From positions 1 to 52,626 of the IMG/VR virus record IMGVR_UViG_3300032332_000345: DNA of 52,626 nt. The stretch is one strand, 5' to 3'. Shown here one piece after another: positions 21,592 to 36,490 of the stretch. This DNA comes from a virus. Lineage: Duplodnaviria > Caudoviricetes. Both the position numbers and the translations under genes were made by a program. Every line of letters starts with the position of its first letter. Within the stretch, counting starts at the first letter, position 1. Under the pieces are notes generated by a model. The model did not search any database, had not been told where the DNA came from, and saw only the letters and a list, made by a program, of their open reading frames with translations.

Positions 21592-22248
21592 TTAGGTCTT
21601 GTTAAACTCGCAAGTCTTAACTGGGCAGAATTTGCATAAAGGTGTAGGGTTTGTTTGCCAAGTGTTGGTTTCGTAAGAGTGATCTAACCTAGTTAAAGGT
21701 GTTGTAAAGTGTTCCCATGATTTCTCTATATCATCTCTACGATATTCCTCAGGCATAAAGTTATTGTGCATTAAAAATAAGAGGCCTGCTTTAACTACCT
21801 CGACATCGGGAAAATGTGCAAAGGTCATAAGTGACATCAGTCTTAATTGTTTTAGGTCAGGATATTTATCGCTTCCCGTTTTATAATCTACAATGAAAGC
21901 ATGGTTACCATCTACAATTACTATGTCGGCTATACCTCTTACCCATCTTTCTTTAGCACCAAATGTGCATGGTGTTTTTTCTTTAGTCAATGCCATTCTA
22001 TGCTCAGTTAATTTATCTCCTGGTATAGCGGTTAAGTCATCTACTAAAGGTTTAAATCGTTGGTAATTTTTAGGAAGTTCTGTACCATCTTTGACATAAT
22101 GTTCTAATGCACTATGCACTTGATTCCCATAAATCATAGCTTGGGAGGGGGATTGTACAAAGTTTTTAGCAACAGTTAATTCATAGTATTGTTTAGGGCA
22201 GTTTTGATATTGTTTAAGAGAAGAGAACGACCATGTAAAGTCAGCCAT
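21592..22248 (-). CDS. PD-(D/E)XK exonuclease (RecB/Cas4-like)
   Basis: SFS..CP, GNQVH, RGIAD, VDYKTG, QLxxM motifs; C-terminal CxxC-x5-C. Confidence 0.88.
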   Translation of the reverse strand: MADFTWSFSSLKQYQNCPKQYYELTVAKNFVQSPSQAMIYGNQVHSALEHYVKDGTELPKNYQRFKPLVDDLTAIPGDKLTEHRMALTKEKTPCTFGAKERWVRGIADIVIVDGNHAFIVDYKTGSDKYPDLKQLRLMSLMTFAHFPDVEVVKAGLLFLMHNNFMPEEYRRDDIEKSWEHFTTPLTRLDHSYETNTWQTNPTPLCKFCPVKTCEFNKT

Positions 22249-22433
22249 TATTCACAGCCTTTCACACCACACTCACAGACTTTTTGTACTTCGCCTGTTG
22301 ATTTATTTAATTCATACTCTGCTAATTCTTCTTTTTTCTTTCTAAATATTTTATCAAAGTTTTCTTCAAACATATCATTAGATGGTTTACTTCTTAATAA
22401 ATCTCCTGTTACATCATTTCTAGCAGTCGCCAT
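22248..22433 (-). CDS. Hypothetical protein
   Basis: GGAGA RBS before MATARND; start trimmed from the track ORF. Confidence 0.55.
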   Translation of the reverse strand: MATARNDVTGDLLRSKPSNDMFEENFDKIFRKKKEELAEYELNKSTGEVQKVCECGVKGCE

Positions 22434-24288
22434 AACTTTCTCCATATTTAGCTTCACACGCAACGGGTAGCCCTTCCGCCCATGTAGGTGGTGCTGACAT
22501 TATATCAGTAATAAATTTCATTGCGGTATCTATTTCTTGAGTAGGAACAACACAAACAATCGCATCATGTACAGTTAATACAGGCTTATACTTCTCATTA
22601 ATTGCTATCATTTGTTCACCTACGATAATTCTTGCTAAGGCTTGAACCACATTCTCTACTACTGAACCACCCCATATAGATATAGTGCCTCGTCTAGATT
22701 TATAAACGTATTGGTTCTTACCCTCTGACGAATCTAGGTGTAGGTTTGGGTAATGAATATATAATCCGTTAGGTAATTGAATACCTTCTTTAGTAACCAA
22801 TAAACATTTATGTTGTCCTAAGTAATAGGGTTTCATGTTGTCAGTCCAGTTAGCCATATTCTCTAAGGCTCTATCACATTCTTCCCATAATTTAATGACA
22901 TGATGGTTAAGTGTTCTATAAACTTTAACAAGCCTTTGACATTCTTGGTCATCTAATACTGCGCCTGGAGGTTGTGTTTTTAAAGTGTGTTGTAGCTTAC
23001 TCCACCCAGTCCCGTAGCCTAGACCTAACGTACAAGTCTTACCTACAAATCTTTCTACAGGGTCCGCTTTAGTAATAGCTCTGTTATAAACTTTGGAAGC
23101 AAACTCTGAATAAACATCTCGACCTTCTTTATACCATTGAACGACATCGTCTTGCCCTGCTAACCACACAAGTATCCGAGCCTCAATTTGTGATGAGTCT
23201 GAGTTAATAACATAATTACCAATAGGTGCTATGACTGCGTTCTTTAATGCTTTCTTTTTCTTATCACGGCTAGGTAAGTTTTGGAAGTTTACTTTGTCTG
23301 AGCCTGCCCATCGGCCTGTGTGTGCACCATAGTATTTAAGTGGGATAGGAAGTTTTGATTTGTTTCTAGCACCGATGTCTAAGAATCTTTCTATACGGGA
23401 TTCTTCTAAGGTTGATTTAGTTCCTAAACGAACAGCACACAGTTCTTGTATAAATGAATCTTCATGTTCAGTAAGTGCTATAAATCCTTCATCATTTTTA
23501 GCTAATGCAAATGTATCTTTTCCTGTAGTAGGGCTTGTCTTTAACGGAGGTATTACACCATACTCTAGTAAGAGTTCTGCAAACTGTTTATTAGATGCTA
23601 ACTTTTTACGAACACATTCTTCTGTATCGCATTTTAATCTCTCCATCAATGACCTTAATAAATCGCCCTTCTCTTGTTTTATATCATCTAATCTTTCTTG
23701 TAGAAGAGCATCGTCGAGATACAATGTTGGCTCGGTATACATACGAAGCGTAAGGTCTATGAGTTTTAATTCATTAGCAGGGAAGTCTTGTCCTAGAATA
23801 TTATAGAGTTTATAGGTAAGTTCAACGTCGTTCTTACAATATTCCCCATACTGTTTTAAATCGTCAGCGTTAAAATCTTCTATGCGTTTACCTTTAGCAT
23901 CAATAACTTCTGTGCCTTTACGACCTAGATTATATTTCTCTACAAGAAAAGCAAGGGAACCGCCTACGTCTACGCCATGCTTAGCACGAGCCATACCAAG
24001 AGTATCAAGATAAATAGCGGGTAAAATACCGAAAACAAATGACAGAATAGCCCCATCAAACTGAGTATTGTGGCACAGTAAGATAGCTTCTTTCCAATCG
24101 ATTCTATCAAGTTCTGCTTTAATGTAATTATGAGTACCTGAGACCCACCGAGTTTCTTCGTCGTCAATTTTAATACCTACACCAATTACCTGAAACTTCT
24201 CGTGGCGTATGTATTCCTCTGTGGTTAGGTTTGATAGACTAAAACCCTGTTCGTAAAAGGTTTCAAAGTCTAGTGTGATTAGATTCAT
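22420..24288 (-). CDS. DNA polymerase family A with 3'-5' exonuclease
   Basis: DFET, HNTQFD and YCKND exonuclease motifs; HTGRW, DSSQIEAR, RFVGKTCTLGLGYG and VHD polymerase motifs. Confidence 0.95.
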   Translation of the reverse strand: MNLITLDFETFYEQGFSLSNLTTEEYIRHEKFQVIGVGIKIDDEETRWVSGTHNYIKAELDRIDWKEAILLCHNTQFDGAILSFVFGILPAIYLDTLGMARAKHGVDVGGSLAFLVEKYNLGRKGTEVIDAKGKRIEDFNADDLKQYGEYCKNDVELTYKLYNILGQDFPANELKLIDLTLRMYTEPTLYLDDALLQERLDDIKQEKGDLLRSLMERLKCDTEECVRKKLASNKQFAELLLEYGVIPPLKTSPTTGKDTFALAKNDEGFIALTEHEDSFIQELCAVRLGTKSTLEESRIERFLDIGARNKSKLPIPLKYYGAHTGRWAGSDKVNFQNLPSRDKKKKALKNAVIAPIGNYVINSDSSQIEARILVWLAGQDDVVQWYKEGRDVYSEFASKVYNRAITKADPVERFVGKTCTLGLGYGTGWSKLQHTLKTQPPGAVLDDQECQRLVKVYRTLNHHVIKLWEECDRALENMANWTDNMKPYYLGQHKCLLVTKEGIQLPNGLYIHYPNLHLDSSEGKNQYVYKSRRGTISIWGGSVVENVVQALARIIVGEQMIAINEKYKPVLTVHDAIVCVVPTQEIDTAMKFITDIMSAPPTWAEGLPVACEAKYGESYGDC

Positions 24289-24557
24289 AAGGTTGATAAT
24301 AGTAACAGAACAATTACCACTACCGCAATCATTATTTTTTCATTTTTATTTTCATTCTTTTCAGTGTCATCGTGTCTATATACACCGCCCCATGCTTCTC
24401 TTGCACTTCGTGGTGTAGGTCTATCAAACGCGTCAGGGTTAAAGAATCTCCAACCTTTTTTGGCATTCTTTTTAAAGACTTTCATTTGCCACGCTTCAAA
24501 TTCTTGGATTGCTTGTCTTGCACTTGGGTCAAAGTTATTTAATTTTGCGTCTAGCAC
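24285..24557 (-). CDS. Hypothetical protein with C-terminal TM helix
   Basis: AAGGAGA RBS before GTG 24557; IMIAVVVIVLLLLSTL tail. Confidence 0.55.
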   Translation of the reverse strand: MLDAKLNNFDPSARQAIQEFEAWQMKVFKKNAKKGWRFFNPDAFDRPTPRSAREAWGGVYRHDDTEKNENKNEKIMIAVVVIVLLLLSTL

Positions 24558-24570
24558 AATTTTTCTCCTT

Positions 24571-24765
24571 TTATTTTGCGTATTTCTCAAATTCATTACG
24601 GCATTCGGTAGAACACCAACGGCGGTCGTCTTTGACTGGGTCTTCACACCATATGCACTTCCCTGTTTGATTAGAAGGTTTTTTGATTTTATCGTGTGCA
24701 TTTCTCACTCCCATGTCAATCATGTGTTGCATTAAATCATTAGCTACGTCGGCGTCATCACTCAT
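24571..24765 (-). CDS. TraR/DksA-family C4 zinc-finger protein
   Basis: MSDDADVA (DxxDxA) N-terminus; CxxC...CxxxC. Confidence 0.8.
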   Translation of the reverse strand: MSDDADVANDLMQHMIDMGVRNAHDKIKKPSNQTGKCIWCEDPVKDDRRWCSTECRNEFEKYAK

Positions 24766-25001
24766 CTTATAAACATCTTATCTCTTGATTGAATATAAAA
24801 ATACTTACGCCACACCCCACCTCTAGTTTGTGCTTTCGGTAAACTAATTAAACCTTTTTTATCTAGGTCTCTTACTCTTTGATGACTACCATGAGAATTC
24901 AATACAACTTGATTACGCGTTGCATTTGGGTGGTCTTGCATATATTGATTTACAATTATGATAAGTTCTTCATCGGTTTTTCTTCTGTAATCTTGTGACA
25001 T
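24762..25001 (-). CDS. Hypothetical protein (possible winged HTH)
   Basis: Packed ORF in the operon. Confidence 0.55.
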   Translation of the reverse strand: MSQDYRRKTDEELIIIVNQYMQDHPNATRNQVVLNSHGSHQRVRDLDKKGLISLPKAQTRGGVWRKYFYIQSRDKMFIR

Positions 25002-25184
25002 TTAAAACAAACACTCCCCTACTAATTGAAATAAATCTTCTTTAACTACGATTGGTTTATCTAGTTTTACTACTTTAACATCGGGATTGTTTTCTGTAAA
25101 CCACTTAGCTTCCTTGACAGACCATCGGTGTTTACGTATAACCTCACCCTCGTCATCTATGATTGCGTAGCTAAATGGAATCAC
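25002..25184 (-). CDS. Hypothetical protein
   Basis: Packed ORF with 4-nt overlap. Confidence 0.5.
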   Translation of the reverse strand: MIPFSYAIIDDEGEVIRKHRWSVKEAKWFTENNPDVKVVKLDKPIVVKEDLFQLVGECLF

Positions 25185-25363
25185 TTGATTTCTCGTCTCG
25201 CTATTTCTTTAGCAATCTTGGCGCGTTTCTTGCCAGGCTCTTGAACCTTGTCAAGCATGTCATATAATACTTTTAATGCTAATGCTTTTAATCTATCTTT
25301 CCCTGTCTTTGTTTTAAGAGGGTTAGCGTGTCGTTTACTTTTGTGTATCTGTTGTGTTGCCAT
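25181..25363 (-). CDS. Small basic hypothetical protein
   Basis: GAGGAG RBS before MATQQ; start trimmed. Confidence 0.55.
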   Translation of the reverse strand: MATQQIHKSKRHANPLKTKTGKDRLKALALKVLYDMLDKVQEPGKKRAKIAKEIARREIK

Positions 25364-25586
25364 TTGTTTTACTCTCCTCAAAGTTTTTCAATGATTGCAT
25401 ATACTGATTTGTTGCAAAATTAATTCCTCTAATCACACCTAGTCGCATAGCGTCATAAAACATTCTTGCATCTTTCTCTGACCTCACTGCCTTATGAGCT
25501 TCTACCCAGCCATAGTATTCAGCGACGGCGACTTCGATTAAATCTTCTTCAAACTTTCTTTTTTTAGCTTCTTGTTCAGGTGTCAT
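25335..25586 (-). CDS. Hypothetical protein
   Basis: AAGGA RBS; coupled start. Confidence 0.55.
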   Translation of the reverse strand: MTPEQEAKKRKFEEDLIEVAVAEYYGWVEAHKAVRSEKDARMFYDAMRLGVIRGINFATNQYMQSLKNFEESKTNGNTTDTQK

Positions 25587-25792
25587 TACAATGTCCTTTG
25601 TTCAAAACATTCTAAATGGCTTTTCACGTAGAAGTGAGGTCTTATTTCTTCATAGAGTTCGCCTTGTACGCATTTAAGATTCATCTTATATTTTGTTTGT
25701 GTTTGGTTATACTCCATAATACCCCACGTAATACAACACCCTACAATTAATCCTACTATGGTATACCCTGTGCCTTCGTATTTATTATCCAT
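25586..25792 (-). CDS. Hypothetical membrane protein
   Basis: GGAGG RBS; N-terminal hydrophobic helix. Confidence 0.55.
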   Translation of the reverse strand: MDNKYEGTGYTIVGLIVGCCITWGIMEYNQTQTKYKMNLKCVQGELYEEIRPHFYVKSHLECFEQRTL

Positions 25793-26031
25793 TACAATCC
25801 TCCGTTAGCTTCAATCATTCGTTGTGTTGATTCTCTATAGCTTTTAATCCCTGTAATCTTTTCAGCTTTTTCTTCACATTTATATAGTGGTGTTATGACT
25901 ATATTGTGTTTTTTTGTTGGCAAGTCTTTTATCCATGATAGTTCTTTCGGTCTTGTCTGCATGATGCTTGACCATACAAGTTCGCCGTCACTATTGAATT
26001 CTTCGATTGCCCATGCGTATGGGTCTTTCAT
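25792..26031 (-). CDS. Hypothetical protein
   Basis: AAGGA RBS; coupled to the next gene. Confidence 0.55.
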   Translation of the reverse strand: MKDPYAWAIEEFNSDGELVWSSIMQTRPKELSWIKDLPTKKHNIVITPLYKCEEKAEKITGIKSYRESTQRMIEANGGL

Positions 26032-26040
26032 ATGATGTCC

Positions 26041-26394
26041 TTAGTAAAATACATGGTTGTTTATTATAACACGTGGTTTCATTCCCCACTGATTGTTAAG
26101 TGCGACATTGTGAAAATGTGATGCGCCTTTAGAAGTATCTTTTGCTTTTAACTTTAATATCTGATAAGCAATATTATAATATTGAGTTCCCCTTAACGCC
26201 TGTGGCGTCGGTGGTTTTAGTTTACCATACCATGAGAATTGGTAGGGCTTTTTCATTTCTATACATATGTTCTCAGGTTTGAAATCAGCACGTCGGTATA
26301 ACACGTAGCCTACGGCAATCTGCCCTGCGATACTCTCTCCCCTTGCTTCCATGAATATAGTTGTGGCGAGACACGCCAATGCTTGGTCTATCAT
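26041..26394 (-). CDS. SleB-like cell wall hydrolase (Hydrolase_2)
   Basis: CLATTIFMEARGE...GQIAV...QFSW...GASHFH...HVFY. Confidence 0.85.
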   Translation of the reverse strand: MIDQALACLATTIFMEARGESIAGQIAVGYVLYRRADFKPENICIEMKKPYQFSWYGKLKPPTPQALRGTQYYNIAYQILKLKAKDTSKGASHFHNVALNNQWGMKPRVIINNHVFY

Positions 26395-26424
26395 AGCAAC
26401 CTCCTTAAATAAGAAACCAGTTAC

Positions 26425-26730
26425 CTAGTCTTTCTTATGGTTTTTTGCTTTTTCTTCTTCGTGATTGATTAGTTCGTCGAGATACCATCGGGCTTTATAC
26501 AAGTCCTCTAGTCCGTTTTTGAATGGATATCGCCATACATATTTAATTATATTAGCCACGCATACTGCCGCGATTCCTAATAAATGTTTTGTTGCTTCAG
26601 CGATAGCATCGATGCACTCTATCTTTCCTTGAGTGTAATGTGAGGGGTGATTTACGTTGTCGCCTGCCCCTGTATGTTTTACTTGTTTACTTCCTGTATA
26701 ACTATTAAGAATTTTTTTGATTCTAGTCAT
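26425..26730 (-). CDS. DUF3310 / T7 gp1.7-like protein (putative nucleotide kinase)
   Basis: VNHPSHY...IECID...NIIKYVWR...KNGLEDLYKARWYL. Confidence 0.85.
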   Translation of the reverse strand: MTRIKKILNSYTGSKQVKHTGAGDNVNHPSHYTQGKIECIDAIAEATKHLLGIAAVCVANIIKYVWRYPFKNGLEDLYKARWYLDELINHEEEKAKNHKKD

Positions 26731-27014
26731 AATACCTCCTTTAACAGAGTTAATAGTTCTTCTATATTACCTTCATTTATAACGATTGCCAAGCCTTGAT
26801 TAGTTTTGATTTGGTCAATGTTGTATTTTTGCAACGCAGTGACTTGACCCTTTCCTGCTTTACATTCTATAGCGATGAACCTACCTTTATAGCAGGCGAT
26901 GATGTCAGGGATACCACTCTTACCATAACCTCCAGTTTGAGGGGAGAAATGATAGCAACTTATGTCGTCGAGAATTTGTTTTACTTTCTTTTTTACTTTT
27001 GCTTCGGGTGTCAT
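26727..27014 (-). CDS. VRR-NUC nuclease / putative Holliday junction resolvase
   Basis: PE...GIPDII...IECKA...TALQ. Confidence 0.85.
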   Translation of the reverse strand: MTPEAKVKKKVKQILDDISCYHFSPQTGGYGKSGIPDIIACYKGRFIAIECKAGKGQVTALQKYNIDQIKTNQGLAIVINEGNIEELLTLLKEVL

Positions 27015-27390
27015 GTGTGTCCTTAGTTAGTGATTCACCTCGTAGTGAATTCAAATCTGTATCGTGTAATACAATAATATACATTGAGGGGGATACTTGC
27101 CATGCTATGTTCTCTAGGTCTTTCATATCATCAGGGCATATATACAAATCAGGGTCTCGTAATACTGACATGTATGGTTCGTAATCTATTGATGCTGTGT
27201 TTCCTGAGTATTTAGATGTAGCCTTAGCAAAGGGAAGTTTCATTCTAATAAATATAGGTAGCGTTTCATCTGTGAATTTCCTTGTATAATTTTTATCTAC
27301 GCAAACTACGTAGCTACCATCTGTATACCACATCGGCACTCTCCAATGCTTCTTGAGAATATGGTGTGGCATAGGGCAATATACTTTCAT
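26920..27390 (-). CDS. Hypothetical protein
   Basis: AAAGGG RBS; 3' end overlaps the VRR-NUC gene. Confidence 0.55.
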   Translation of the reverse strand: MKVYCPMPHHILKKHWRVPMWYTDGSYVVCVDKNYTRKFTDETLPIFIRMKLPFAKATSKYSGNTASIDYEPYMSVLRDPDLYICPDDMKDLENIAWQVSPSMYIIVLHDTDLNSLRGESLTKDTHDTRSKSKKESKTNSRRHKLLSFLPSNWRLW

Positions 27391-27403
27391 GTAACCCTTT
27401 CTA

Positions 27404-28444
27404 TTATGTTAATCGTTCTACCATTTTACCATCAATTGTAATGTCTATGTTCCATGGTGAAGATTTGAAGTTTTCTAGATGTGTAAGATAATCTTTAGTG
27501 AAAGTATCATGTTTGACGTGAATATATTTAGCAAACTTTTTCTTGAATGTTCTAATCCAATCACTAGGTTGAGCTAGACTACTCATATAATATCCAACAT
27601 TAAATGCTTTCATATATACATATATAGCTTCAACAGGCTTCTCAAAAAATATCTTCTCGGCTATCGCAACTGCACTATCTCGTTGTTCTTTACCCCAATA
27701 ATAATGATTTCTACTTTCAGTATTAGCAAAAAGTTCGTTCGTTACTTCCTCTTTGTCTTGATTAAAAGATTCTCTATCCATACAAGTTATAAAGGCATAT
27801 GCACCATTAAGTTTATCTTGATAGATGTTCATAGCTTCTTTAGATTTCTTTCTATCTACTGTGTTATATGTTGCTAGATACTTTGATGATTCGTGTATTG
27901 CCATAGTGTCCATGTTGAATCGCATATGTTTAAAGATTGGTATTCTTATATCTACGCCATTATCTCTACGACCATACACAATACCACCATGAGCTATACT
28001 TGATTGAAACACACCATTAGAATAACTATACGCAGAGAATATCATACGCATACCTTGATGAAAGTTATTAGTCACAATCTCTACTGTGTTATCTGACCTA
28101 ATAATTAAATCTACCTTAGGGTTCTTAACATCTTTTTCGTAGTAGCCTGTAGGTTCATAGGTTCTTGCATCAGTATTCCATTTCTCTTGTTCTCGCCATT
28201 TTTTAAGTTCTTTACTATCCATGCTACTTTTCTTGGTATTGAATTCTTCGGTAGTCATAGACTGCATTTCCCACTTGTGATAGTAACCCACGTGATACTC
28301 TATCTCGCCATTCACTTCTCTCGGATAAAAGTATTTATAGTTATGGTTTCTATCGCTAAAGGGATACTTATCTATTGTCCCCCTCCAAGGCTTCTGTGTT
28401 TCCGTGATTCGTTTTAAGTGTTCATATCTTAGATTACTATTCAT
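27404..28444 (-). CDS. Hypothetical protein
   Basis: 346-aa ORF in the early/middle operon. Confidence 0.7.
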   Translation of the reverse strand: MNSNLRYEHLKRITETQKPWRGTIDKYPFSDRNHNYKYFYPREVNGEIEYHVGYYHKWEMQSMTTEEFNTKKSSMDSKELKKWREQEKWNTDARTYEPTGYYEKDVKNPKVDLIIRSDNTVEIVTNNFHQGMRMIFSAYSYSNGVFQSSIAHGGIVYGRRDNGVDIRIPIFKHMRFNMDTMAIHESSKYLATYNTVDRKKSKEAMNIYQDKLNGAYAFITCMDRESFNQDKEEVTNELFANTESRNHYYWGKEQRDSAVAIAEKIFFEKPVEAIYVYMKAFNVGYYMSSLAQPSDWIRTFKKKFAKYIHVKHDTFTKDYLTHLENFKSSPWNIDITIDGKMVERLT

Positions 28445-28590
28445 TTTGTATATGCCTTTCCTTTTTCAAAGTTAATTATTAATACCTCATCTTTAGGGTC
28501 ACCATCGCATATCTCGCATAAGGCTTCCCATACATCTTGTTTTTTAAAATCGTCTGCATATAGTTTTATATGTGCGTAATTCTCACTCAT
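28441..28590 (-). CDS. 49-aa hypothetical protein (not in track)
   Basis: GGGAGG RBS; MSENYAHIKLYADDF...; ATGA overlap with the next gene. Confidence 0.55.
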   Translation of the reverse strand: MSENYAHIKLYADDFKKQDVWEALCEICDGDPKDEVLIINFEKGKAYTK

Positions 28591-28747
28591 ACTTCCTCCC
28601 TAGTTCCTCAAAAATTGTCTCTAATGACTTCGGTTCAAAGTCGTGTTTATTAAAATCAAATATTGTTTTCTTACCATTGGCATGTTTGACATACCCTTTC
28701 ACTCTTACACTACTTACTATAATTTCTTTCTGTTTCTTATCACTCAT
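28583..28747 (-). CDS. 54-aa hypothetical protein (not in track)
   Basis: AGGAGGAG RBS; MSDKKQKEIIVSSVRVKG...; fills the gap exactly. Confidence 0.55.
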   Translation of the reverse strand: MSDKKQKEIIVSSVRVKGYVKHANGKKTIFDFNKHDFEPKSLETIFEELGRKYE

Positions 28748-29066
28748 CTACTCCTCCTGCTTGTTGATATACATATTCTATTTTCATGTCAGCTAATAGT
28801 TTCTCTAACTGTGTATTAGTTTCTTTATATCGTCTAGCGTAGTGCCAATTGATACGTTTAGATTCTTTACTTTTAACGTGTATCTTCCATGCTATTTTGC
28901 TTATCTCGTGCATGATTGCATTTCGTTCTTTAGCTAATTCTAATGTTTGTGTTGTATGCAATTTAATGTGTTCTCCAATATGAGCATTTACTACGCCCAT
29001 TGATTGACCAAAAAATATCCTGTCTTTAGTTCGCATCTTAGTCATCTTTTTTAACAACCTTGCCAC
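28740..29066 (-). CDS. Hypothetical protein
   Basis: Packed ORF; exact start uncertain. Confidence 0.5.
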   Translation of the reverse strand: MARLLKKMTKMRTKDRIFFGQSMGVVNAHIGEHIKLHTTQTLELAKERNAIMHEISKIAWKIHVKSKESKRINWHYARRYKETNTQLEKLLADMKIEYVYQQAGGVDE

Positions 29067-30210
29067 TTGGTGCTACGAAGTTATTGTTCTGTGTTACAAG
29101 CCATAACGTAGGGCATTTAACGTTCCACGTTATTTCTGATTCAAGGTATCCGTCTGTGAATACAATGATTGCTTCGGCTTCCACACGTTGTTTATTTAGG
29201 TGTTCACTTACGCATGAAACGATAGTCCCACCCCCACCCTGTGGTTTAAGTAATTCTTTGATGTTGTCATAATGTTCAGGCATAAAGACTTGTTCACCAT
29301 GCACCTCGGTGTCCCACCACAACACACGCACTTTACTTGGCGTTGATACAGAACAAATAGAAGCCAGTTCCGATGCAAACTCTGTGAGTTCCTGACCACC
29401 AATCGAGCCTGATGTATCTATCGCCACAATAAGTTCACCAATACTTTCGTTCTCCATGCTTGGTAAATAAATATCATTAGCCATCTGACGTTTGTTAAAC
29501 TTACGCCATGTATATTCATCATTACCTTTGGTTGCACTTGATACAAACTCGCGTAGCACCTCTCGCCAATTCACTTTGGGTTCTAACATATCGCCAATCA
29601 CTCTAGGAATCTTAGCCCCCATACGACCTGCAAGTATGCCACCCTCACGTAAAGCCTTGTCAATCTTGCCTGACATCTCTTTAGCTTCTTCATCAGTCAT
29701 GTTCTGTGCGTCTTCAAAGCCATGCTCATCTAGTGTCTTACCTAGTGATTCACCTTTACCTGAATCCTTGTTTTGTTTCTGTTGTTTCTTCAAGTCTTCG
29801 TATATCTCACGCACCGACCAATTGTGATACTTGGCATCATAGAGACCACCCTCAGGTAACTTGCATAAGTCATGGTCTTTAAGATTCATAATCACATCAT
29901 TGACTGCATAGTCTGTCGCTACGTTGATAGCTTGAGCATTATCTTTAAACTCTTTCTTGAACCTAGGTATATGCTTTAGTGCAACGTGTAAGTTCTCATG
30001 TAATATCAACGCACGTAACTCAGGGTCTGTCAGCTTAGATATAAATTCACGACCATACTTTTTATTAACGCCATCAGTATATGCCGTCACCTTATCATCA
30101 ATGACTGCGTTCTTACCCATGAGCATGACACCTGAATACAATGCCGTCTCACGATGTTTCATCAATGCTATGTGTGCTTTCTTTAGCCTTGTTTCTTGAG
30201 TGATTGCCAT
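29038..30210 (-). CDS. DUF2201-type metallopeptidase plus VWA domain protein
   Basis: AYTDG, HENLH (HExxH), MIDAS DTSGS, GGGT and FTDG motifs. Confidence 0.88.
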   Translation of the reverse strand: MAITQETRLKKAHIALMKHRETALYSGVMLMGKNAVIDDKVTAYTDGVNKKYGREFISKLTDPELRALILHENLHVALKHIPRFKKEFKDNAQAINVATDYAVNDVIMNLKDHDLCKLPEGGLYDAKYHNWSVREIYEDLKKQQKQNKDSGKGESLGKTLDEHGFEDAQNMTDEEAKEMSGKIDKALREGGILAGRMGAKIPRVIGDMLEPKVNWREVLREFVSSATKGNDEYTWRKFNKRQMANDIYLPSMENESIGELIVAIDTSGSIGGQELTEFASELASICSVSTPSKVRVLWWDTEVHGEQVFMPEHYDNIKELLKPQGGGGTIVSCVSEHLNKQRVEAEAIIVFTDGYLESEITWNVKCPTLWLVTQNNNFVAPSGKVVKKDD

Positions 30211-30222
30211 GTCTATCCCCTA

Positions 30223-31296
30223 TTAAAATAATTCGTGATTCTCTGTTGCCCACTTAGCTATCTCTGCATTGTTACGAGCTAATTTCACACCATTCTTACT
30301 ACGCACCATCATGGTAAAGAATACTGCTTGAATCTCGCTACTCTCAATGCGATTCACAAACTTCATGAATGATGATAAGTCCTCTTGGGTTGCTAGGTTA
30401 TCTGTCGCTTGGAACATCAACATCAATAATGCAGAAGTCTCTGTTGGCATAGCCACATCACTTGGTTTCTCAATGATGTCTTTGAAACGAGGTAATGATT
30501 TCTCTACCGATAGGAACGCACTCATATCTGCTGATGCACTCGCACCGATAGTCCCTGCCAACGCACACATGACTGCATTGTCGCCTAGCACCTCTTTGTT
30601 ATCCACGATGACTGATGCCTTAGCCAATGAACGTGGTGAACAGAATGACAACACTGCTTTACTTGGTTGAAAGATATATGGGTTGTCTGCTTGGTCACCC
30701 TCTGTATAACTTGCCAATGACCTAGGAAACATATACACCCATGCTCTGATTAACGGATTGATTGCATTGTCCGTTGCCCATTTCAACCACGTATCAACAT
30801 CAGGCTTCTGCATCTTTAATATACATACACGATTGCCTGCATGAGCCAACATACTGTCACCCACTCCGTCACTTGCATTGTTACTTGTCGCGAAAACTAT
30901 CGATTCACGTGGTAGTGAAACGTCACCCACAGTTCTCTCTAACATCAATCTTGTGAATATGACTTGCAATAGCTTTGGTGATTTCATAAACTCATCGAGT
31001 AAGATAACCTTAGGCTTTGGTGAATCTAGTTTAAACAATTTACCCACGTAGCTATCCAACGTCTTAGTATCATGATTGGGTATCGTCATAGCAATATCAC
31101 TCATGTCTTTCACAGGGCAATCTACATAAATGTAGTCATACTTGTCACCCAAATCTTCTTCAAGCATTTTTAGTATTGATGTCTTACCACAACCAGGCTC
31201 AGATTGGATTACAGGCGTAAGTTCCTTACCTATCGTGGGTATGAGTTTCCTTAGTTCATCGATTGTTACATTACTTACTGTATTGATTGTTGCCAT
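30223..31296 (-). CDS. MoxR-like AAA+ ATPase
   Basis: PGCGKT Walker A, ILLDE Walker B, ATSN sensor, SPRS sensor 2; adjacent to the VWA gene. Confidence 0.85.
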   Translation of the reverse strand: MATINTVSNVTIDELRKLIPTIGKELTPVIQSEPGCGKTSILKMLEEDLGDKYDYIYVDCPVKDMSDIAMTIPNHDTKTLDSYVGKLFKLDSPKPKVILLDEFMKSPKLLQVIFTRLMLERTVGDVSLPRESIVFATSNNASDGVGDSMLAHAGNRVCILKMQKPDVDTWLKWATDNAINPLIRAWVYMFPRSLASYTEGDQADNPYIFQPSKAVLSFCSPRSLAKASVIVDNKEVLGDNAVMCALAGTIGASASADMSAFLSVEKSLPRFKDIIEKPSDVAMPTETSALLMLMFQATDNLATQEDLSSFMKFVNRIESSEIQAVFFTMMVRSKNGVKLARNNAEIAKWATENHELF

Positions 31297-31307
31297 GCTA
31301 TGTCTCC

Positions 31308-32237
31308 TTAGAATTTAAATTTAGATAAGATGTCATCAACGTCATTCTTTACTCTGTCACGCACCATATCATTCTCTCTGATTAAGTCTGAATCTACTCC
31401 ACTTAGTGTTCGTTCTAGTCCTAATACTGCACTGCTTAACTTACTGCTTACTTCATTATCTACAGGCCTAAAGTCTTTAAACGTATTGCATAAGTCCTTA
31501 GCTTTTTCCAACGTGGATTCATAAATCTTACGTCGTTTAGTTTTCGTTTCACCTGACTGTGAATCCTTAATCTCATCAACACCACAACAATGACTGATAC
31601 TTTCCATCACTTCCGTTAAGCGTTCTACTTGCTCATTTAAGATACCAGTTATAATGCCCTCAGCTTGTCTCTCATACTGACCTTTTAAATCCTCAGCTAT
31701 GTCGTTACTAATCTGACAACGCCAATCATGAGCAGGCACTTCGGCTACGTATAGCTTTATCCCAAATTTATTTCTTACCTCACTTGCACTTGGGTAATCA
31801 TTAGCGTTAAACATATCGCCTGCTTTGAAAGCCATGTTCGATACAATCGCTTGGTAGTTGTTTATGAAACTGTCTAGTAACCTATTGAATTCTACGTCGT
31901 GGTCATTGAATTCTTTTTTGAATTTCTCTAGGTTGATGACAGGCAATATGTCTTGAGCATTGTTCCACCTAAACGTGCTACGCTTGAGCCAGTTGTATAT
32001 CGTCTGCCTGTAGTTCGCTACGCGTTTATGAAATTGGTCATCAGCTAAGAGATTCTTAACAAATCTGCCTGCACTGCTCGTTGCTTTCTTAGCGTGAGTT
32101 ACCTCGTCACTTATCCCTCTGTCTTGCTTTGTTGCTGACCATACATTGACATCGACTGATACTAATACTGCTGACGTTGCCAACGATATGATATGGTTCG
32201 GTTGTTGCATCTCAAACTTCAAGACGTTTGCTTCCAT
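31308..32237 (-). CDS. DUF3150-like helical protein
   Basis: N-terminal LVSVDVNVW; DYP motif; synteny with the AAA/VWA pair. Confidence 0.55.
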   Translation of the reverse strand: MEANVLKFEMQQPNHIISLATSAVLVSVDVNVWSATKQDRGISDEVTHAKKATSSAGRFVKNLLADDQFHKRVANYRQTIYNWLKRSTFRWNNAQDILPVINLEKFKKEFNDHDVEFNRLLDSFINNYQAIVSNMAFKAGDMFNANDYPSASEVRNKFGIKLYVAEVPAHDWRCQISNDIAEDLKGQYERQAEGIITGILNEQVERLTEVMESISHCCGVDEIKDSQSGETKTKRRKIYESTLEKAKDLCNTFKDFRPVDNEVSSKLSSAVLGLERTLSGVDSDLIRENDMVRDRVKNDVDDILSKFKF

Positions 32238-32258
32238 GTCTATCTCCTTATGTTGTTG

Positions 32259-32274
32259 TTCACGTTGTCGTGAA
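32259..32274. promoter_or_regulatory. Palindrome TTCACG-N4-CGTGAA, copy 1
   Basis: Also at 34862-34877; variant at 35478-35493. Confidence 0.55.
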
Positions 32275-32320
32275 TTGTTTAATTACCATCATCTATAACT
32301 TTCTTACCCCATGTCTATAC

Positions 32321-32349
32321 AGTATAGCATAACTTGACATATAAACATA
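32321..32349 (-). promoter_or_regulatory. Extended -10 promoter with conserved 18-bp upstream box, copy 1
   Basis: Minus strand TATGTTTATATGTCAAGT-TA-TGC-TATACT; same box and spacing at 34942-34970. Confidence 0.7.
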
Positions 32350-32363
32350 GCACTTGAAATAAA

Positions 32364-32816
32364 CTATATATTCATCTCTATACTCCTAGATACATACATA
32401 ATATTCCAAGGGTCATACCCTCCACCACGTTCCTCAACATCATCAGTTTCCTCACCGATTCTAATGAACGCACATGACACAGGATTATTCATAGTCTCAC
32501 TACCATACTGCTCTGCATACTCCTCAGCTATTTCATACAACCTTTCATGAGCCTTAACATCTGCATATGATTCATACCATTTCAAACCATCTTCATAAAA
32601 CGCTATAGTCCTATTCTCTTTATTCACAGTTAGGTGAACGTTTATATCATAGGTGCTATCAAAGCATTTCCCTGCTACCTCGTCTTGTTGCATCTCGGTC
32701 AGCATAAGTAAGAATATCCCATCAGCACTTAGATTTTTTTCTTCCTCCGTTGCGTTCTCACCAAGATTAACTTCGTCTACTCTGACACCATATGCGACGT
32801 CACTCCGATAGCCCAT
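32364..32816 (-). CDS. Acidic hypothetical early protein
   Basis: GGAGGA RBS; MGYRSDV...FIRIGEE. Confidence 0.7.
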   Translation of the reverse strand: MGYRSDVAYGVRVDEVNLGENATEEEKNLSADGIFLLMLTEMQQDEVAGKCFDSTYDINVHLTVNKENRTIAFYEDGLKWYESYADVKAHERLYEIAEEYAEQYGSETMNNPVSCAFIRIGEETDDVEERGGGYDPWNIMYVSRSIEMNI

Positions 32817-32817
32817 G

Positions 32818-33018
32818 TTATTTGTCCTCCACAGCTCTCAAGCGTTTAGAATAATAGATAGCATCTTGTATAGCTTGCCACTCAAACATATTCTTTTGCT
32901 TAGCTATCTCAATCAACTCCTCATCTTGTAATTGTTTCTGATGCCACATCGCGTCAATCTCATCTTGTTCCATTTGTTCCTCCTGTTGTTTAATTAACCA
33001 TTCTTTAACCTTACCCAT
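32818..33018 (-). CDS. Hypothetical early protein
   Basis: GAGGGAG RBS. Confidence 0.55.
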   Translation of the reverse strand: MGKVKEWLIKQQEEQMEQDEIDAMWHQKQLQDEELIEIAKQKNMFEWQAIQDAIYYSKRLRAVEDK

Positions 33019-33253
33019 GTAAATCTCCCTCGTCTAAGTTATCGTGTGATTCACCATTAAGTGAACGGATATAATGCAAGAGTTCTCTACTTACCTCATA
33101 CCTACCATGCACTATGTCTTCCGTTCCGTCTGTTAGTTCGTCTAACCCATTGACAATCTCAGCGTCATGTTTCAGTTCGTCTTTGAGCCATCGTGTTATG
33201 TTATCTACCATACCTTTATACTTTAGTGGTCGTGCCATGATTAGTCCTCGCAA
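33011..33253 (-). CDS. Hypothetical early protein
   Basis: Packed ORF; true start probably the internal MARPLK. Confidence 0.55.
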   Translation of the reverse strand: MRGLIMARPLKYKGMVDNITRWLKDELKHDAEIVNGLDELTDGTEDIVHGRYEVSRELLHYIRSLNGESHDNLDEGDLHG

Positions 33254-33528
33254 CTTCCATTAATACATTTAGATTCTAAGATTTCTTTTTCTAGTTCCTC
33301 GACTGCCTTGTTGTTTAATACTTCATAGGCATACTCTTTAACCTCGCTATACACCTCGCCCTCGATGACATCTAACTTGCATAGCAACCCTTTGTCTGCC
33401 ACGTGGTCTTTAATAACTGACGCAATATATGTCTCGCCTGTTATATCCTCACCCCATGATTCGATGTCGTCTAACTTTGCTTTCGGTATGCTTACCTCTA
33501 CTATTGCTAAAAACTTTATTGTTTCCAT
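33241..33528 (-). CDS. Acidic hypothetical early protein
   Basis: AAGGAGA RBS. Confidence 0.6.
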   Translation of the reverse strand: METIKFLAIVEVSIPKAKLDDIESWGEDITGETYIASVIKDHVADKGLLCKLDVIEGEVYSEVKEYAYEVLNNKAVEELEKEILESKCINGSCED

Positions 33529-33529
33529 G

Positions 33530-33691
33530 TTATTCTCCTTGTTTAATATCTACTGTGTGAATCTGTCCTGCTACTTCTTGCCACCTTTCAGGGTGACGCA
33601 TCGCTTCTAACTCTGCTTCTTTACTACTATGTGCTACGATATGAACCTCATACACAATGCTTTCTTCTAGCTTTACTATATAGTTCTTCAT
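33530..33691 (-). CDS. 53-aa hypothetical protein (not in track)
   Basis: AGGAGGT RBS; MKNYIVKLEESIVYEVHIVAHSSKEAELEA... Confidence 0.6.
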   Translation of the reverse strand: MKNYIVKLEESIVYEVHIVAHSSKEAELEAMRHPERWQEVAGQIHTVDIKQGE

Positions 33692-33705
33692 GCTAACGTG
33701 ACCTC

Positions 33706-34041
33706 CTATTGTTGTGCCTTGTTAATTAAATACCCCACCATTCCTCGATTAATAATTACTTCTTTTATTTCATCAGTATCTAACCACATATCTACTTCAC
33801 TTGGTCTCAACTGCGATTGATGCCTTGTCGTACTTTTTGAATACTTATCCTTGTTGCCTATCCATTTATTTTCTTGGTCATCATATACATACATAGGAAA
33901 ATGGTGTCCATAACTATACACTACAAATAATTTCTTAGCACCCTCGTCCCAACTATGCCACATGCCTTTAGTGTTACTACCCTCAAACTCATCTAAACTA
34001 TTTACATACTCTCTTGCCTTGTTATTTGATACTCTCATCAC
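33706..34041 (-). CDS. Hypothetical early protein
   Basis: AAGGAGG RBS; YSYGHHFP...YSKSTTRHQ. Confidence 0.65.
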   Translation of the reverse strand: MMRVSNNKAREYVNSLDEFEGSNTKGMWHSWDEGAKKLFVVYSYGHHFPMYVYDDQENKWIGNKDKYSKSTTRHQSQLRPSEVDMWLDTDEIKEVIINRGMVGYLINKAQQ

Positions 34042-34189
34042 TGCCCTCCTTATATTTTCCTGTTAATAAATCATCATACGTTAAACCCTGTTCATAAAAG
34101 TTTAGGCACGCACCACATAACTTATCCTCTACCTTGCCATGTTCTTTTATATACTCAGCGTTCTCACTACACCAATTACATGCACTCAT
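34022..34189 (-). CDS. 55-aa CxxC...CxxC protein (not in track)
   Basis: AAGGAGA RBS; MSACNWC...LCGAC. Confidence 0.55.
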   Translation of the reverse strand: MSACNWCSENAEYIKEHGKVEDKLCGACLNFYEQGLTYDDLLTGKYKEGSDESIK

Positions 34190-34200
34190 ATCTATCTCCT

Positions 34201-34398
34201 TTAATTATCTTTGTCGATGACTTCTATCTCAACTCTGAACCCTGCATCTTCTAACCAAGTAATCAATTCACTCTGCACTAGCTTAGCGTCAATGTAGTTC
34301 AACTCCTCATCGCCGTTATCTTGCCATTCATCTACGAGTGAAGTGTTAAAGTCATAAGCCAAGTTCATTGTTACTTTGTATCTCTTTGTTGCTATCAT
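34201..34398 (-). CDS. Acidic hypothetical early protein
   Basis: GGGAGGG RBS; ATGA overlap. Confidence 0.55.
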   Translation of the reverse strand: MIATKRYKVTMNLAYDFNTSLVDEWQDNGDEELNYIDAKLVQSELITWLEDAGFRVEIEVIDKDN

Positions 34399-34604
34399 CT
34401 TACGTTCCCTCCCTTGTTGTTAAGTCCTTTTAAGTCCTCTTGGTTTGTGATGACCATGTAATTACTCTTGTGCATAGGTGCTATCGTGTGCTTTTTATTT
34501 CTTGCATCAACCTCGCCACACTTTAAACATGTTGCATAACCTAACCTATACCTTGCATCTAATACGTGGTCACCACACTTTATACATAGATTTTTATACT
34601 CCAT
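34395..34604 (-). CDS. C4 zinc-finger protein
   Basis: CIKCG...R..LG..TCLKCG; GGGAGG RBS. Confidence 0.65.
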   Translation of the reverse strand: MEYKNLCIKCGDHVLDARYRLGYATCLKCGEVDARNKKHTIAPMHKSNYMVITNQEDLKGLNNKGGNVR

Positions 34605-34652
34605 GCTAACCTCCCTATAAATTGCCTAGTCTGTCTCTGTTTTACGCTTTGT

Positions 34653-34835
34653 TTAGTGAAGTAACGATATAATCAAAATGAACGCTGATATACCCCATGC
34701 TAAAACTTCTGTAATAATAAGTCGTCTTAGTCTGCTCTTTGGGATTGTCACGTATTCACTCATCTCTATTTCTCTGTTATAACTTGACATATAATCTTGT
34801 AGCTTTTTGTTTTTACGATGGTCTGTAAAGTTCAT
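34653..34835 (-). CDS. Small protein with C-terminal TM helix
   Basis: AAGGAGA RBS; first gene after the 34942 promoter. Confidence 0.55.
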   Translation of the reverse strand: MNFTDHRKNKKLQDYMSSYNREIEMSEYVTIPKSRLRRLIITEVLAWGISAFILIISLLH

Positions 34836-34861
34836 GATGTATCTCCTTTGTTATGTTGTCG

Positions 34862-34877
34862 TTCACGCTGACGTGAA
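34862..34877. promoter_or_regulatory. Palindrome TTCACG-N4-CGTGAA, copy 2
   Basis: Same leader position as copy 1. Confidence 0.55.
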
Positions 34878-34941
34878 TTTAGTTAAAAAATGATGCTTAC
34901 TTACTACGTGAGGTGTTACATTCTCTCCCCACATAATAACC

Positions 34942-34970
34942 ATTATATCATTACTTGACATATAAACATA
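34942..34970 (-). promoter_or_regulatory. Extended -10 promoter with conserved 18-bp upstream box, copy 2
   Basis: Minus strand TATGTTTATATGTCAAGT-AA-TGA-TATAAT. Confidence 0.7.
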
Positions 34971-34999
34971 CAACTTTACATATCTTTTTTGTTTTGAGC

Positions 35000-35456
35000 T
35001 GTTCAATCTGTTCAACCGGTTGTTCAAAGTAAACTTGACTAATTGTCAGAAATTTAAGATTTTTAGGTGAGTGATTTATAGCGTTCAAAGGCTTTAAGTG
35101 CTTGTTATATATATAATTTTTAAATAATAATAATAAGAGTGTTTTTTCCTAATGTACAACCTGTTCAACTGTTCAATCTAAATAAAAGAGTGTGTAGTTC
35201 TTGGAGGCGTTTTTTGTTTCACTGCGAAAAGAGACCTCTTACTCTCTACCTCGTCAAAATCCTATACATACCTTAAATCACATTGAACACATTGAACACA
35301 TTGAACAACGCTTTATAATCAACGACTTATAACTTGACATAAAATAACGAAGATTGAACAACGCATTGAACAGGATTGAACAAAGCCTTATCTTTAATTA
35401 AACTCATACAAGATACATCAACTAAGTATATCTTACACCACACATAGCATTGAACA
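35000..35456. repeat. Inverted iteron arrays (TGTTCAA / TTGAACA) with IHF-like sites; putative replication origin
   Basis: TGTTCAA at 35000, 35009, 35021, 35162, 35170; TTGAACA at 35283, 35292, 35301, 35354, 35366, 35376, 35450; AT-rich tract 35104-35136; AATCAA-N4-TTA at 35317. Confidence 0.7.
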
Positions 35457-35488
35457 ACGCATCATTGGATAAACAAATTCACGACATG

Positions 35489-35648
35489 GTGAATGGCTAA
35501 ATAAACTTCTAGGTCATGACTAGGGAATTCCCACGCAAGCGACGTCGACGACACATAACTGGTTTCAATTGGGGTAAGATATAAATTAACGAAGTGTCCA
35601 ACAGAAGCATACTACGCAAACGCCCGCTCGCTACGTAACTGGCATCAA
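35489..35648. repeat. Repeated non-coding module, copies A and C
   Basis: GTGAATGGCTAAATAA (35489) and CGACGACACATAACTGGTWTCAATT (35546) recur at 36383 and 36427; degenerate copy at 35618-35648. Confidence 0.75.
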
Positions 35649-35658
35649 AATTTGGGCC

Positions 35659-35684
35659 AAAAAAAAGGAGGCCCGAAGGCCTCC
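35659..35684 (-). terminator. Rho-independent terminator
   Basis: GGAGGCC-TTCG-GGCCTCC followed by T8. Confidence 0.92.
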
Positions 35685-35695
35685 CTAGTCATTGC

Positions 35696-36301
35696 TTAGC
35701 TAACCCATTTACGGTTAAATTCTGAAATCGCCGTTATGAGCTTTTTGTCATTCGCCGTATCATCACCACGCGCCTTAGCATTAGCGCATTTTTTCTTAAG
35801 GCCATCCATTGTATCCTTAACGGTCTCTGCGAACGTCTTAGTTGCACCGCGAACCCTAGCAACCCCTTCGTTCTTAATGGCATGAATAGCTTTCTTAAGA
35901 TCAGCAAGGCGGTTACTGCAATATTTGCTTACTGAATCACGCTCTGCCTTAATAACCGCATGCAACTGAGGGTTAGATTGACGTAACGCGCCGAAGGCCT
36001 GCGGTGTATAGGCCATGATATTCGCAACGGTTCGGTGATACTTTTCGCCCTTGTGATTATCGAATGCAAGTTTTTCAACAGGTAGAAAATTACCGCTCTC
36101 TACAATAAAATGTTGATCGATCTTAGGTTGATTTTCTGCAACCCTTAATTGATAACCCGCAAATAGATCGGCCTTAACCTCATCTGCAACCTCATCATCA
36201 AGGTTCGGATACTGTTCATAGACTGATCTAGCTAAGCCCTTAAGATTATCTGCGAATGACGCTTGTTGATAAGCTATTTGTTTTAAGTTTAAAGTTTTCA
36301 T
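35696..36301 (-). CDS. Monocistronic early hypothetical protein (~201 aa, helical)
   Basis: GGAG RBS before MKTLNL; own promoter-like element and terminator. Confidence 0.75.
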   Translation of the reverse strand: MKTLNLKQIAYQQASFADNLKGLARSVYEQYPNLDDEVADEVKADLFAGYQLRVAENQPKIDQHFIVESGNFLPVEKLAFDNHKGEKYHRTVANIMAYTPQAFGALRQSNPQLHAVIKAERDSVSKYCSNRLADLKKAIHAIKNEGVARVRGATKTFAETVKDTMDGLKKKCANAKARGDDTANDKKLITAISEFNRKWVS

Positions 36302-36339
36302 ACATACTCCATAAATAAACAGCAAAATTGCTGTGAGAT

Positions 36340-36373: not shown

Positions 36374-36382
36374 CAGGGCCTA

Positions 36383-36451: not shown

Positions 36452-36461
36452 CGCTAGCTAC

Positions 36462-36484: not shown

Positions 36485-36490
36485 AGTTGG

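Follow-up and report, generated by a model that had tools for sequence, protein, structure and literature searches.

Why should a phage genome that carries GATC over most of its length contain none at all across one long block of early genes? The question is raised by an uncultured freshwater podophage represented by the IMG/VR virus record IMGVR_UViG_3300032332_000345, in which a GATC-free domain occupies the early/middle operon. The window analysed was the entire record, 52,626 nt long, which is classed as linear and about 83% complete. It was found to contain 90 GATC sites, of which those at 21681–21684 and 35899–35902 enclosed the domain, with zero between them; the second-longest GATC gap in the window was 1,745 nt. 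The exact map agreed with the original prediction on this gap (14,214 nt free of sites) and on the two counts made with it, GAT followed by another base more than 100 times in the domain (190 GAT were counted, and C was the next nucleotide in none) and about 16 GATC in the first 5 kb (16 were counted). A normal density of GATC, named as the result that would undo the claim, was not obtained. The domain was also placed correctly, from the small early open reading frames (ORFs) through the DNA polymerase, and it extended into the 3′ end of an exonuclease gene (Table 1). Its right boundary was sharp, as claimed, with six GATC within 440 nt (35899–36337), and the gaps for GCGC, GGCC and CCGG ended nearby, at 35770, 35655 and 35016, respectively.

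The dozens of sites that had been anticipated for the domain were borne out by calculation. The expected number of GATC was 46.1 from base composition, 39.8 from a dinucleotide and 42.0 from a trinucleotide Markov model, against 0 observed, and the probability of such a gap was about 3e-13 from the site density of the window itself. For a codon control, synonymous codons were shuffled 500 times in each of 30 domain genes, with the proteins and the per-gene codon counts kept. The shuffled domain genes contained 34.3 ± 4.4 GATC (minimum 21, maximum 46), whereas the real genes contained one, the boundary site at 21681. The genes outside the domain contained 17 GATC (20.9 expected) and 71 GATC (83.6 expected), together 88 against 104.5, and the whole sequence outside contained 90 against 114.3 expected under the Markov model, about 0.8 of expectation. 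The GC content was 0.376 inside the domain and 0.379 outside. The codon usage shifted in the domain, where GAT stood at 58% (72–74% outside) and ATC at 23% (11–12% outside); the ATC codon, which forms part of GATC, was thus commoner inside the domain, not rarer, and 707 one-substitution neighbours of GATC were present. The other result that might have overturned the prediction, an origin of the desert in codon usage or composition, was rejected by the Markov expectations, the codon shuffles and the equal GC content. No genome-wide depletion of GATC was found in the window. The avoidance was regional: the sites were missing from a single continuous stretch and kept in the rest of the genome, to an extent that composition and codon usage do not account for.

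GATC was the most extreme depleted word in the window, and other words were co-depleted in the same stretch. GTAC occurred 9 times against 39.5 expected, GCGC 5 times against 15.5, GGCC 7 times against 15.7 and CCGG once against 4.2, and continuous stretches free of GTAC and of GCGC lay inside the domain. The counts of CATG, CTAG, TGCA, AATT and, in this genome, ACGT were normal in the domain. Depletion of CpG was rejected as the cause of the gaps in ACGT, TCGA, GCGC and CCGG, the observed/expected ratio of CpG inside being equal to or higher than that outside and non-palindromic NCGN words being plentiful. A GATC-directed host system had been predicted as the agent; the avoidance of restriction sites confined to the early arm stands, whereas the single system does not, since GTAC, GCGC, GGCC and CCGG were avoided too. 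The same co-depletion contradicts a cause peculiar to GATC and unrelated to restriction, of the Dam, SeqA or MutH type invoked for phiX174 or T7. Such a cause would suit the extreme rank of GATC, but relatives purge ACGT, TCGA or AGCT in place of GATC or along with it, and the effect is regional, and we regard it as scarcely credible. Two side observations concern other palindromes. Compared with shuffled synonymous codons, AATT was strongly under-represented in the coding regions of the domain (z about -4.6) and in those outside it (z about -7.1), as it was in the related genomes G001 and G002, and TCGA was low outside the domain in the window.

The same analysis in related phages, suggested with the prediction, showed that early-arm deserts recur and that the sets of missing words differ by lineage. 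We examined 80 polymerase-anchored and 80 TerL-anchored loci in IMG/VR (of about 600 TerL-related contigs), and ten long related records were fetched whole for the desert analysis. Of the polymerase loci, 18 had no GATC on the early side (upstream flank and polymerase), 52 had normal counts there and 10 were too short for a call. Enough upstream flank was present in 32 of the 80 TerL loci, among which 11 were regional like the window, 4 were GATC-free throughout and 17 were normal (two with low density). In a quick maximum-likelihood tree of the polymerase (IQ-TREE, 69 rows), the window was found in a clade of 16 rows (Shimodaira–Hasegawa-like approximate likelihood ratio test, SH-aLRT, 99) with paths of up to about 0.3 substitutions per site; nine members were GATC-free, six too short or ambiguous and one normal. 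GATC-free early regions were found in at least four further lineages of the tree. A chimeric assembly is an unlikely source of the pattern, as many independent contigs repeat the same architecture.

The domain showed 77% nucleotide identity to G001 and 82% to G004, and the aligned 8.1 and 12.9 kb of these genomes contained 0 GATC. The homologous segments of G008, G006 and G007 contained 8, 8 and 17 GATC, respectively, in 2.8–4.7 kb. The proteins of these genes can therefore accommodate GATC, and the domain must be kept free of it. Recombination was frequent (the protein identity between G002 and the window was 90–99% across 27.4–32.2 kb, 68–95% further right and about 80% at the polymerase), and every early-arm variant was purged despite it. 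The feature is real, strongly non-random and conserved.

The purged words were GATC, GTAC, ACGT, TCGA, GGCC, GCGC, CCGG and AGCT across the related records. A GATC gap of 14,554 nt was found in G001 (complete, 63.6 kb), and it coincided in position with gaps for GTAC (13.0 kb), ACGT (10.5 kb), TCGA, GGCC, GCGC and CCGG. The 9-kb core of G001 contained zero copies of all seven words and also zero CCTC and CCGC, whereas the non-palindromic ACGA, ACGC, CCGA and GCGA counted 38–52 and the CpG ratio was unchanged. Six overlapping deserts of 12–28 kb were found in G004, early-arm deserts for GTAC, ACGT, CCGG and AGCT in the GATC-normal G006, G007 and G008, and a 14.5-kb AGCT desert between the polymerase and terL in G012. 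Some members of the family avoided GATC over the whole genome, with 1 site against 167 expected in G011, 0 against 168 in G012 and 0 against 91 in G013. G011 (L166–L169) showed two tiers of avoidance in a single genome: GCGC (1 against 38) and CCGG (0 against 20) were avoided genome-wide along with GATC, and ACGT, TCGA and GGCC were missing from the early arm only, in three gaps that started within 300 bp (34536–34825) and less than 1 kb from terS. Palindromes made up 3–7 of the 8 most depleted among 136 words in five genomes, with word sets that differed between genomes. Several words resembling restriction sites, palindromic or type IIS-like, were thus missing in a manner that varied by lineage. 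As a side observation, the non-palindromic CCAG/CTGG was low in the early arms of the window (15 against 39), G001, G002, G011 and G008; together with the zero CCTC and CCGC of the G001 core, this looks like avoidance of type IIS-like or partial sites.

The frequent recombination and the genome-wide avoiders G011, G012 and G013 make it conceivable that the early module was recombined in from such a genome, so that the desert would be a fading imprint and not a current adaptation. The different codon usage of the domain is in keeping with this origin. However, the regional state holds across the clade up to its longest paths and at 77–82% identity, different words are purged in the same place in different lineages, GATC-normal genomes included, and G011 shows both genome-wide and early-arm-only avoidance. 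Moreover, the polymerases of genome-wide avoiders are not close to that of the window (G011 63%, L042 70%), and a site-free early arm would be useless to a recombinant with cuttable late genes. We consider such a relic improbable.

The deserts were concentrated in one part of the genome. Significant deserts (P < 1e-3) were counted in the records with both terS and polymerase landmarks and were assigned to the interval between the two if at least half of their length was inside. The interval contained 27 of the 32 deserts, or 24 of 29 in eight records after G003, in which it wraps the contig end, was dropped, and it made up 18–33% of each record; these counts come from related records and hence are not independent trials. 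In a sample of 22 early-interval deserts from six genomes, chosen by the analyst, the ends on the terS side scattered less than those on the far side (pooled within-genome standard deviation 1.3 against 4.1 kb), and the terS-side ends were found 0–2.5 kb from the putative terS. The joint removal of several site-like words, the lineage-specific sets and the one fixed location argue for selection by restriction. The sequences show that selection has removed several type II-like recognition sites from one long leftward early operon, and the avoidance, confined to one arm, indicates that only the DNA of that arm was at risk. It is a new instance of position-dependent restriction avoidance, for which order of entry is a plausible but unproven mechanism.

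In the window, the genes were found in two diverging arms, a plus-strand structural arm and a minus-strand early and replication arm. The small ORFs of the minus strand were followed by the AAA ATPase, the DUF2201 metallopeptidase/VWA protein, an Hjc/VRR-NUC-like resolvase, which also falls in the domain, and the family-A DNA polymerase; the arm ended with the PD-(D/E)XK exonuclease, the SNF2 helicase and the DUF927 primase-helicase. When the record is set against the complete relative G001, the ~8 kb that it lacks fall in the structural arm. The contigs of the window and of G002 both break near the same ~8–11 kb of structural genes (39.6–47.8 kb in G001), probably at a hypervariable tail-fibre region.

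Packaging usually begins in the vicinity of terS and proceeds along the late genes, and whatever is packaged last is ejected first. By this rule the early arm would enter first. On balance we favour, by a modest degree of belief, the explanation that the domain is the part of the genome exposed to restriction and that entry is ordered or staged, with the early operon in front. The purged operon reaches from an iteron-rich control region at 35.0–35.7 kb through the DNA polymerase. The genome ends would be fixed near the packaging genes and the DNA delivered in order, so that no DNA but the early operon would be in the cell during the full activity of host restriction. Delivery may be slow and coupled to transcription, as in T7, or may proceed in two steps, as in T5. 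One or more early products, or late arrival as such, would shield the later DNA, and each lineage would purge the sites cut by its own hosts. The terS-side edge, about three times sharper than the far edge, gives the deserts a polarity that suggests ordered entry. The putative podovirus-type ejection genes are in keeping with it, and the position of the domain 0–2.5 kb from the packaging genes suggests that it lies at the first-entering end.

The experiments on T5/BF23 and on murciaviruses offer, by analogy, a precedent for restriction sensitivity that depends on position, and the published passages uphold the comparison with T5 and T7 made in the prediction. According to PMC10644984, bioRxiv 10.1101/866236 and the BASEL paper, T5 and BF23 resist type I and type II restriction–modification unless sites are present in their first-step-transfer (FST) region, and the protector is described there as unidentified. 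A 2025 paper on the T7-like murciaviruses (PMC12455610) reports that sensitivity is decided only by motifs in the first-injected region, that the effect needs non-headful packaging, and that the early region varies greatly and contains anti-defence genes; it is also stated there that site location was previously ignored in avoidance analyses. The phage of the window resembles murciaviruses in its podovirus type, its putative ejection proteins and its long, co-directional early operon. In murciaviruses, however, one type I motif was studied by experiment, whereas here many 4-bp type II-like words over 10–18 kb are deduced from sequence, the early and structural arms are divergent and not co-linear, and no Ocr or ArdA match was found.

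The resemblance to the FST region of T5 is that a pre-early block of about 10 kb must be free of sites while sites elsewhere are tolerated (PMC10644984 and bioRxiv 10.1101/866236), and that a repeat-rich non-coding region borders the block (T5 record annotation). The T5 block differs in being a terminal repeat with divergent operons and in having a stop signal with DnaA boxes at its distal border, whereas in the window the repeats are found on the proximal side and DnaA boxes show no enrichment. The 4-bp signature of the freshwater phages was also much stronger than that of the T5 FST region, where 4-bp palindromes occurred at normal counts; 37 of the 64 six-bp palindromes were absent there (mean 23.5, maximum 31 in 16 windows), including the EcoRI, EcoRV and HindIII sites, each with a count of 0. 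No family match suggesting T5 pre-early functions was found among the 16 of the 30 domain ORFs scanned against PHROGs. As a separate observation, the T5 FST region (L200, 1–9140) contained 53 GCGC and 27 CGCG, where the density of the following 40 kb would give 7.8 and 5.3, a 5–7-fold excess, and the single-chain interruption consensus given in the T5 record notes contains GCGC.

Several results weigh against ordered entry of the early operon. The record is linear, about 83% complete and known from assembled contigs only, and these did not reveal the physical ends or the order of entry. Between the domain and the putative terS there is a spacer of about 2 kb that bears 8 GATC, and it would enter ahead of the site-free domain if the genome end is beside terS. 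The distal edge moves by lineage, falling after the polymerase in G001, in the exonuclease gene in the window and after SNF2 in G004. Past the domain, GATC steps straight to about 0.8 of expectation, without a gradient, as would suit a two-step switch more than slow entry, but nothing like the T5 stop signal was found at the distal edge. DnaA-box-like sites numbered 14 against 16.6 expected, with none in 35028–35695, and the non-coding DNA rich in repeats adjoins the proximal edge and not the distal one. No match was found in the window to Ocr (PF08684) or ArdA (PF07275), and S-adenosylmethionine (SAM) lyase was not searched for; the T7-type RNA polymerase (PF00940) had no match in six frames, in a search whose control matched no genome either. 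Among the deserts, 5 of the 29 fell elsewhere (CCGG of the window, with 49% overlap, CTAG of G002, CATG of G004 and GGCC of G007 and G008). Some close relatives in the polymerase clade of the window contained a few GATC in the early arm, namely L001 (3 in 4.65 kb), L003 (1), L012 (2) and L016 (6, upstream of the polymerase), and the distant cultured phages HTVC023P, DSL-LC04 and Pag-Yong1 were without the regional pattern.

The domain looks like one transcription unit, as no strong minus-strand terminator was found inside it, three were found just upstream, and a near-consensus promoter lies past its end (21262–21235), which is likely, from its sequence, to be the start of the next transcription unit, with the SNF2 helicase and the DUF927 primase-helicase. 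Sigma-70-like promoter matches overall were not above shuffles (56 against 61.5), and individual promoters are weak evidence. A single unit also suits an explanation in which the whole genome enters at once and only the early operon, transcribed end to end, must stay uncut until repair, recombination or anti-nuclease functions are made, the cuts elsewhere being repaired or out-replicated. The exonuclease, the resolvase and the polymerase are encoded in the domain, the step-like rise of GATC outside the domain fits, and the GATC-bearing spacer is no longer a problem; a 2026 preprint reports ligase-dependent repair of nuclease cuts in phiKMV-like phages. However, a lone infecting genome cut in its late arm would be without a template for recombinational repair, and a scan of 20 domain ORFs against Pfam and/or PHROGs gave no match to a ligase family. 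The primase-helicase and the SNF2 helicase, which are also needed early, are outside the domain and bear GATC, and the sharper terS-proximal edge is not predicted. We judge this explanation unlikely.

The nuclease-like genes of the domain also bear on the idea that early site-specific phage nucleases destroy the host DNA, so that the phage DNA present at that time must be free of their sites. It was proposed for T5 as Davison's hypothesis on A1 (bioRxiv 10.1101/866236). With up to nine words purged in G001 and sets that shift between close lineages, many changing nucleases would be needed, and the late arm keeps its sites yet must also survive. We hold this to be very improbable.

If restriction acts on the first-entering DNA, the agent that protects the rest becomes the next question. 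The prediction that no methylase is visible was upheld in the window, where no match to PF02086 (D12), PF01555 (N6_N4) or PF05869 (T1-type Dam) was found, C5 methylases not having been searched; PF02086 was likewise not over the cut-off in the records of 15 relatives. A methylase could still lie in the missing ~8 kb of structural genes. It is possible, though we doubt it, that the early operon encodes a new broad-spectrum neutraliser of type II restriction that would act within minutes and shield the later DNA from many specificities. Candidates for it are the acidic small ORFs at 32.4–34.4 kb, or the AAA ATPase paired with the DUF2201 metallopeptidase/VWA protein. An anti-restriction gene had been predicted among the small early ORFs, where the acidic ones are possible candidates that matched no known family. 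The latter protein was matched by tblastn in G001, G002 and G011, and none was found in G008 and G003. The 209-aa boundary ORF and the 309-, 346-, 156- and 150-aa domain ORFs had no significant match to a Pfam, PHROG or PADLOC family. The acidic 150-aa ORF had 147 homologues, none of them named. Its profile matched PDB sequences only at E about 0.8–1, its AlphaFold2 model was poor (mean predicted local distance difference test score, pLDDT, 52.7), and in the atlas only unnamed viral clusters were near it, the nearest named family being at 0.79, the chance level. A further candidate protector of the remaining DNA is the virion-borne 2006-aa polyvalent protein; polyvalent proteins have a role in countering host defence. 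The identity of this protein was 34–36% in G001, G003 and G011, 66% in G002 and 86% in G004, and its counterpart in Pag-Yong1 is annotated as 'large polyvalent protein'.

No near-identical cultured phage was found by megablast. The best polymerase match among cultured phages was KPP25 (34%), and by TerL (45–52%) the closest were DSL-LC04, the HTVC023P-type pelagiphages and the cyanophages Pag-Yong1/MinM2, which share a related terminase and a podovirus-like structural arm. HTVC023P, DSL-LC04 and Pag-Yong1 differ in having no early-arm deserts, and the genomes of the first two are mostly co-directional. Pag-Yong1 (L180–L181), a Planktothrix cyanophage of 69% G+C, shares with the window the two-arm architecture, the giant 'polyvalent' protein and the presence of both an ATPase and a VWA-like protein, and a SAM lyase is annotated close to where its leftward early arm starts. 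Its GTAC is avoided genome-wide (0 against 87 expected); it thus belongs with G011, G012 and G013 (GATC) to the genome-wide avoiders, which also lose 4-bp palindromes by selection, whereas the avoidance in the window is regional. The source runs with the window sequence were lake and freshwater metagenomes. Twenty were listed, all as assembled contigs, and the contigs of four, compared with the window, showed no starts or ends along it and flat depth; contig depth is uninformative on termini. No end repeats were found in the window record, and no tRNA genes were found.

Table 1. Positions of the domain and of associated features in the window (nucleotide 1 is the first of the record)
Feature	Position	Strand	Remarks
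Plus-strand structural arm	37916–52626 and 1–14344	+	terS-position ORF, TerL, portal, major head protein, ejection genes
Putative ejection apparatus	5632..14344	+	ejection protein, 525-aa ORF, 2006-aa giant protein
'DNA ejection protein'	5632–6744	+	phrog_4287, E 3.5e-9
2006-aa giant protein	8324–14344	+	lysozyme-like N-terminus (phrog_938, E 5e-5), LPD38 polyvalent-protein domain
Minus-strand arm	38142 down to 14341	-	short accessory ORFs, then many small early ORFs at start
Weak terminator-like hairpin	21214–21199	-	consensus match only; ~0.45 kb beyond distal edge
Best sigma-70-like promoter of region	21262–21235	-	11/12 consensus matches; ~0.45 kb beyond distal edge
PD-(D/E)XK exonuclease	21592..22248	-	leftmost flanking GATC (21681) in its 3′ end
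GATC-free domain, early/middle operon	21685..35898 (14,214 nt)	genes on -	from GATC map
Family-A DNA polymerase with 3′–5′ exonuclease domain	22420..24288	-	near distal end of domain
GTAC-free core, 8.2 kb	25667..33829		gap 25666–33830; P about 5e-10
GCGC-free stretch, 9.6 kb	26124..35769		gap 26123–35770; shares right boundary of domain; P about 4e-5
DUF2201_N putative metallopeptidase + DUF2201 VWA-like domain protein	29038..30210	-	paired with ATPase
AAA-type ATPase	30223..31296	-	phrog_1297
Very acidic small early ORFs	32364..34398	-	putative DNA-mimic-type anti-restriction candidates
Acidic ORF	32364–32816	-	isoelectric point (pI) 4.2, net charge -20
Acidic ORF	33241–33528	-	pI 4.3
Acidic ORF	34201–34398	-	pI 4.1
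Non-coding region, 670 nt, proximal (right) edge	35028..35695		iterons and AT-rich run
Strong rho-independent terminator-like hairpin	35665..35686	-	ends 209-aa ORF; directly right of domain
Accessory cassette region between domain and putative terS	35696..38142	-	short ORFs, terminators, 8 GATC
Putative terS, 207-aa ORF	starts 37916	+	position only; no family match
TerL	38529–40109	+	packaging genes span 37916..40109, diverging from early arm

The region at the proximal edge contained TTGAACA/TGTTCAA iterons, 12 in 700 bp (35000–35470) against 0.24 expected, beside an AT-rich run. It is probably an origin, or the operator and promoter region of the early operon, with sites for a lineage-specific DNA-binding protein. 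The exact iteron motif was unclustered in all relatives, and G002 contained the region at 74% identity. A motif of the 'AACTTGACATATAA' type was also present at and near the beginning of the early operon in four copies (34779, 34950, 35329 and 37417) that were 75–100% alike, possibly a regulator or promoter element.

The cassette spacer (35.7–38.1 kb) contained ORFs without homologues in five relatives, and two more GC-hairpin terminators were found in it (36469–36484 and 36765–36780), its short ORFs each ending in one. A hot-spot was found at 36314–37396, where contigs from other lake samples skip 294, 730, 606 or 200 nt; one skip (36457–36752) was flanked by two copies of a 39-nt repeat bearing the GGGGGCCGAAGCCCCC terminator hairpin. 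A 115-aa ORF of the SprT-like zinc metalloprotease family (37471–37818, minus strand) adjoins the putative terS. It was unusually conserved, with 98–100% protein and 90–91% nucleotide identity to G001 and G002, whereas the neighbouring DNA was far more diverged.

Studies of avoidance usually count sites genome-wide, whereas here the location matters: in an abundant uncultured family of lake phages, the avoidance of many 4-bp sites is concentrated in one arm of 10–18 kb. If the early operon does enter first, the desert would be a marker, readable from sequence alone, of the first-entering end and of the length of DNA exposed before protection. The search for a general function against type II restriction would then be narrowed to about 25 small genes, and the word sets of the lineages would report the restriction specificities deployed by their hosts. 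If a neutraliser is encoded in the operon, the multi-palindrome desert would mark exactly the DNA that must survive before the neutraliser acts.

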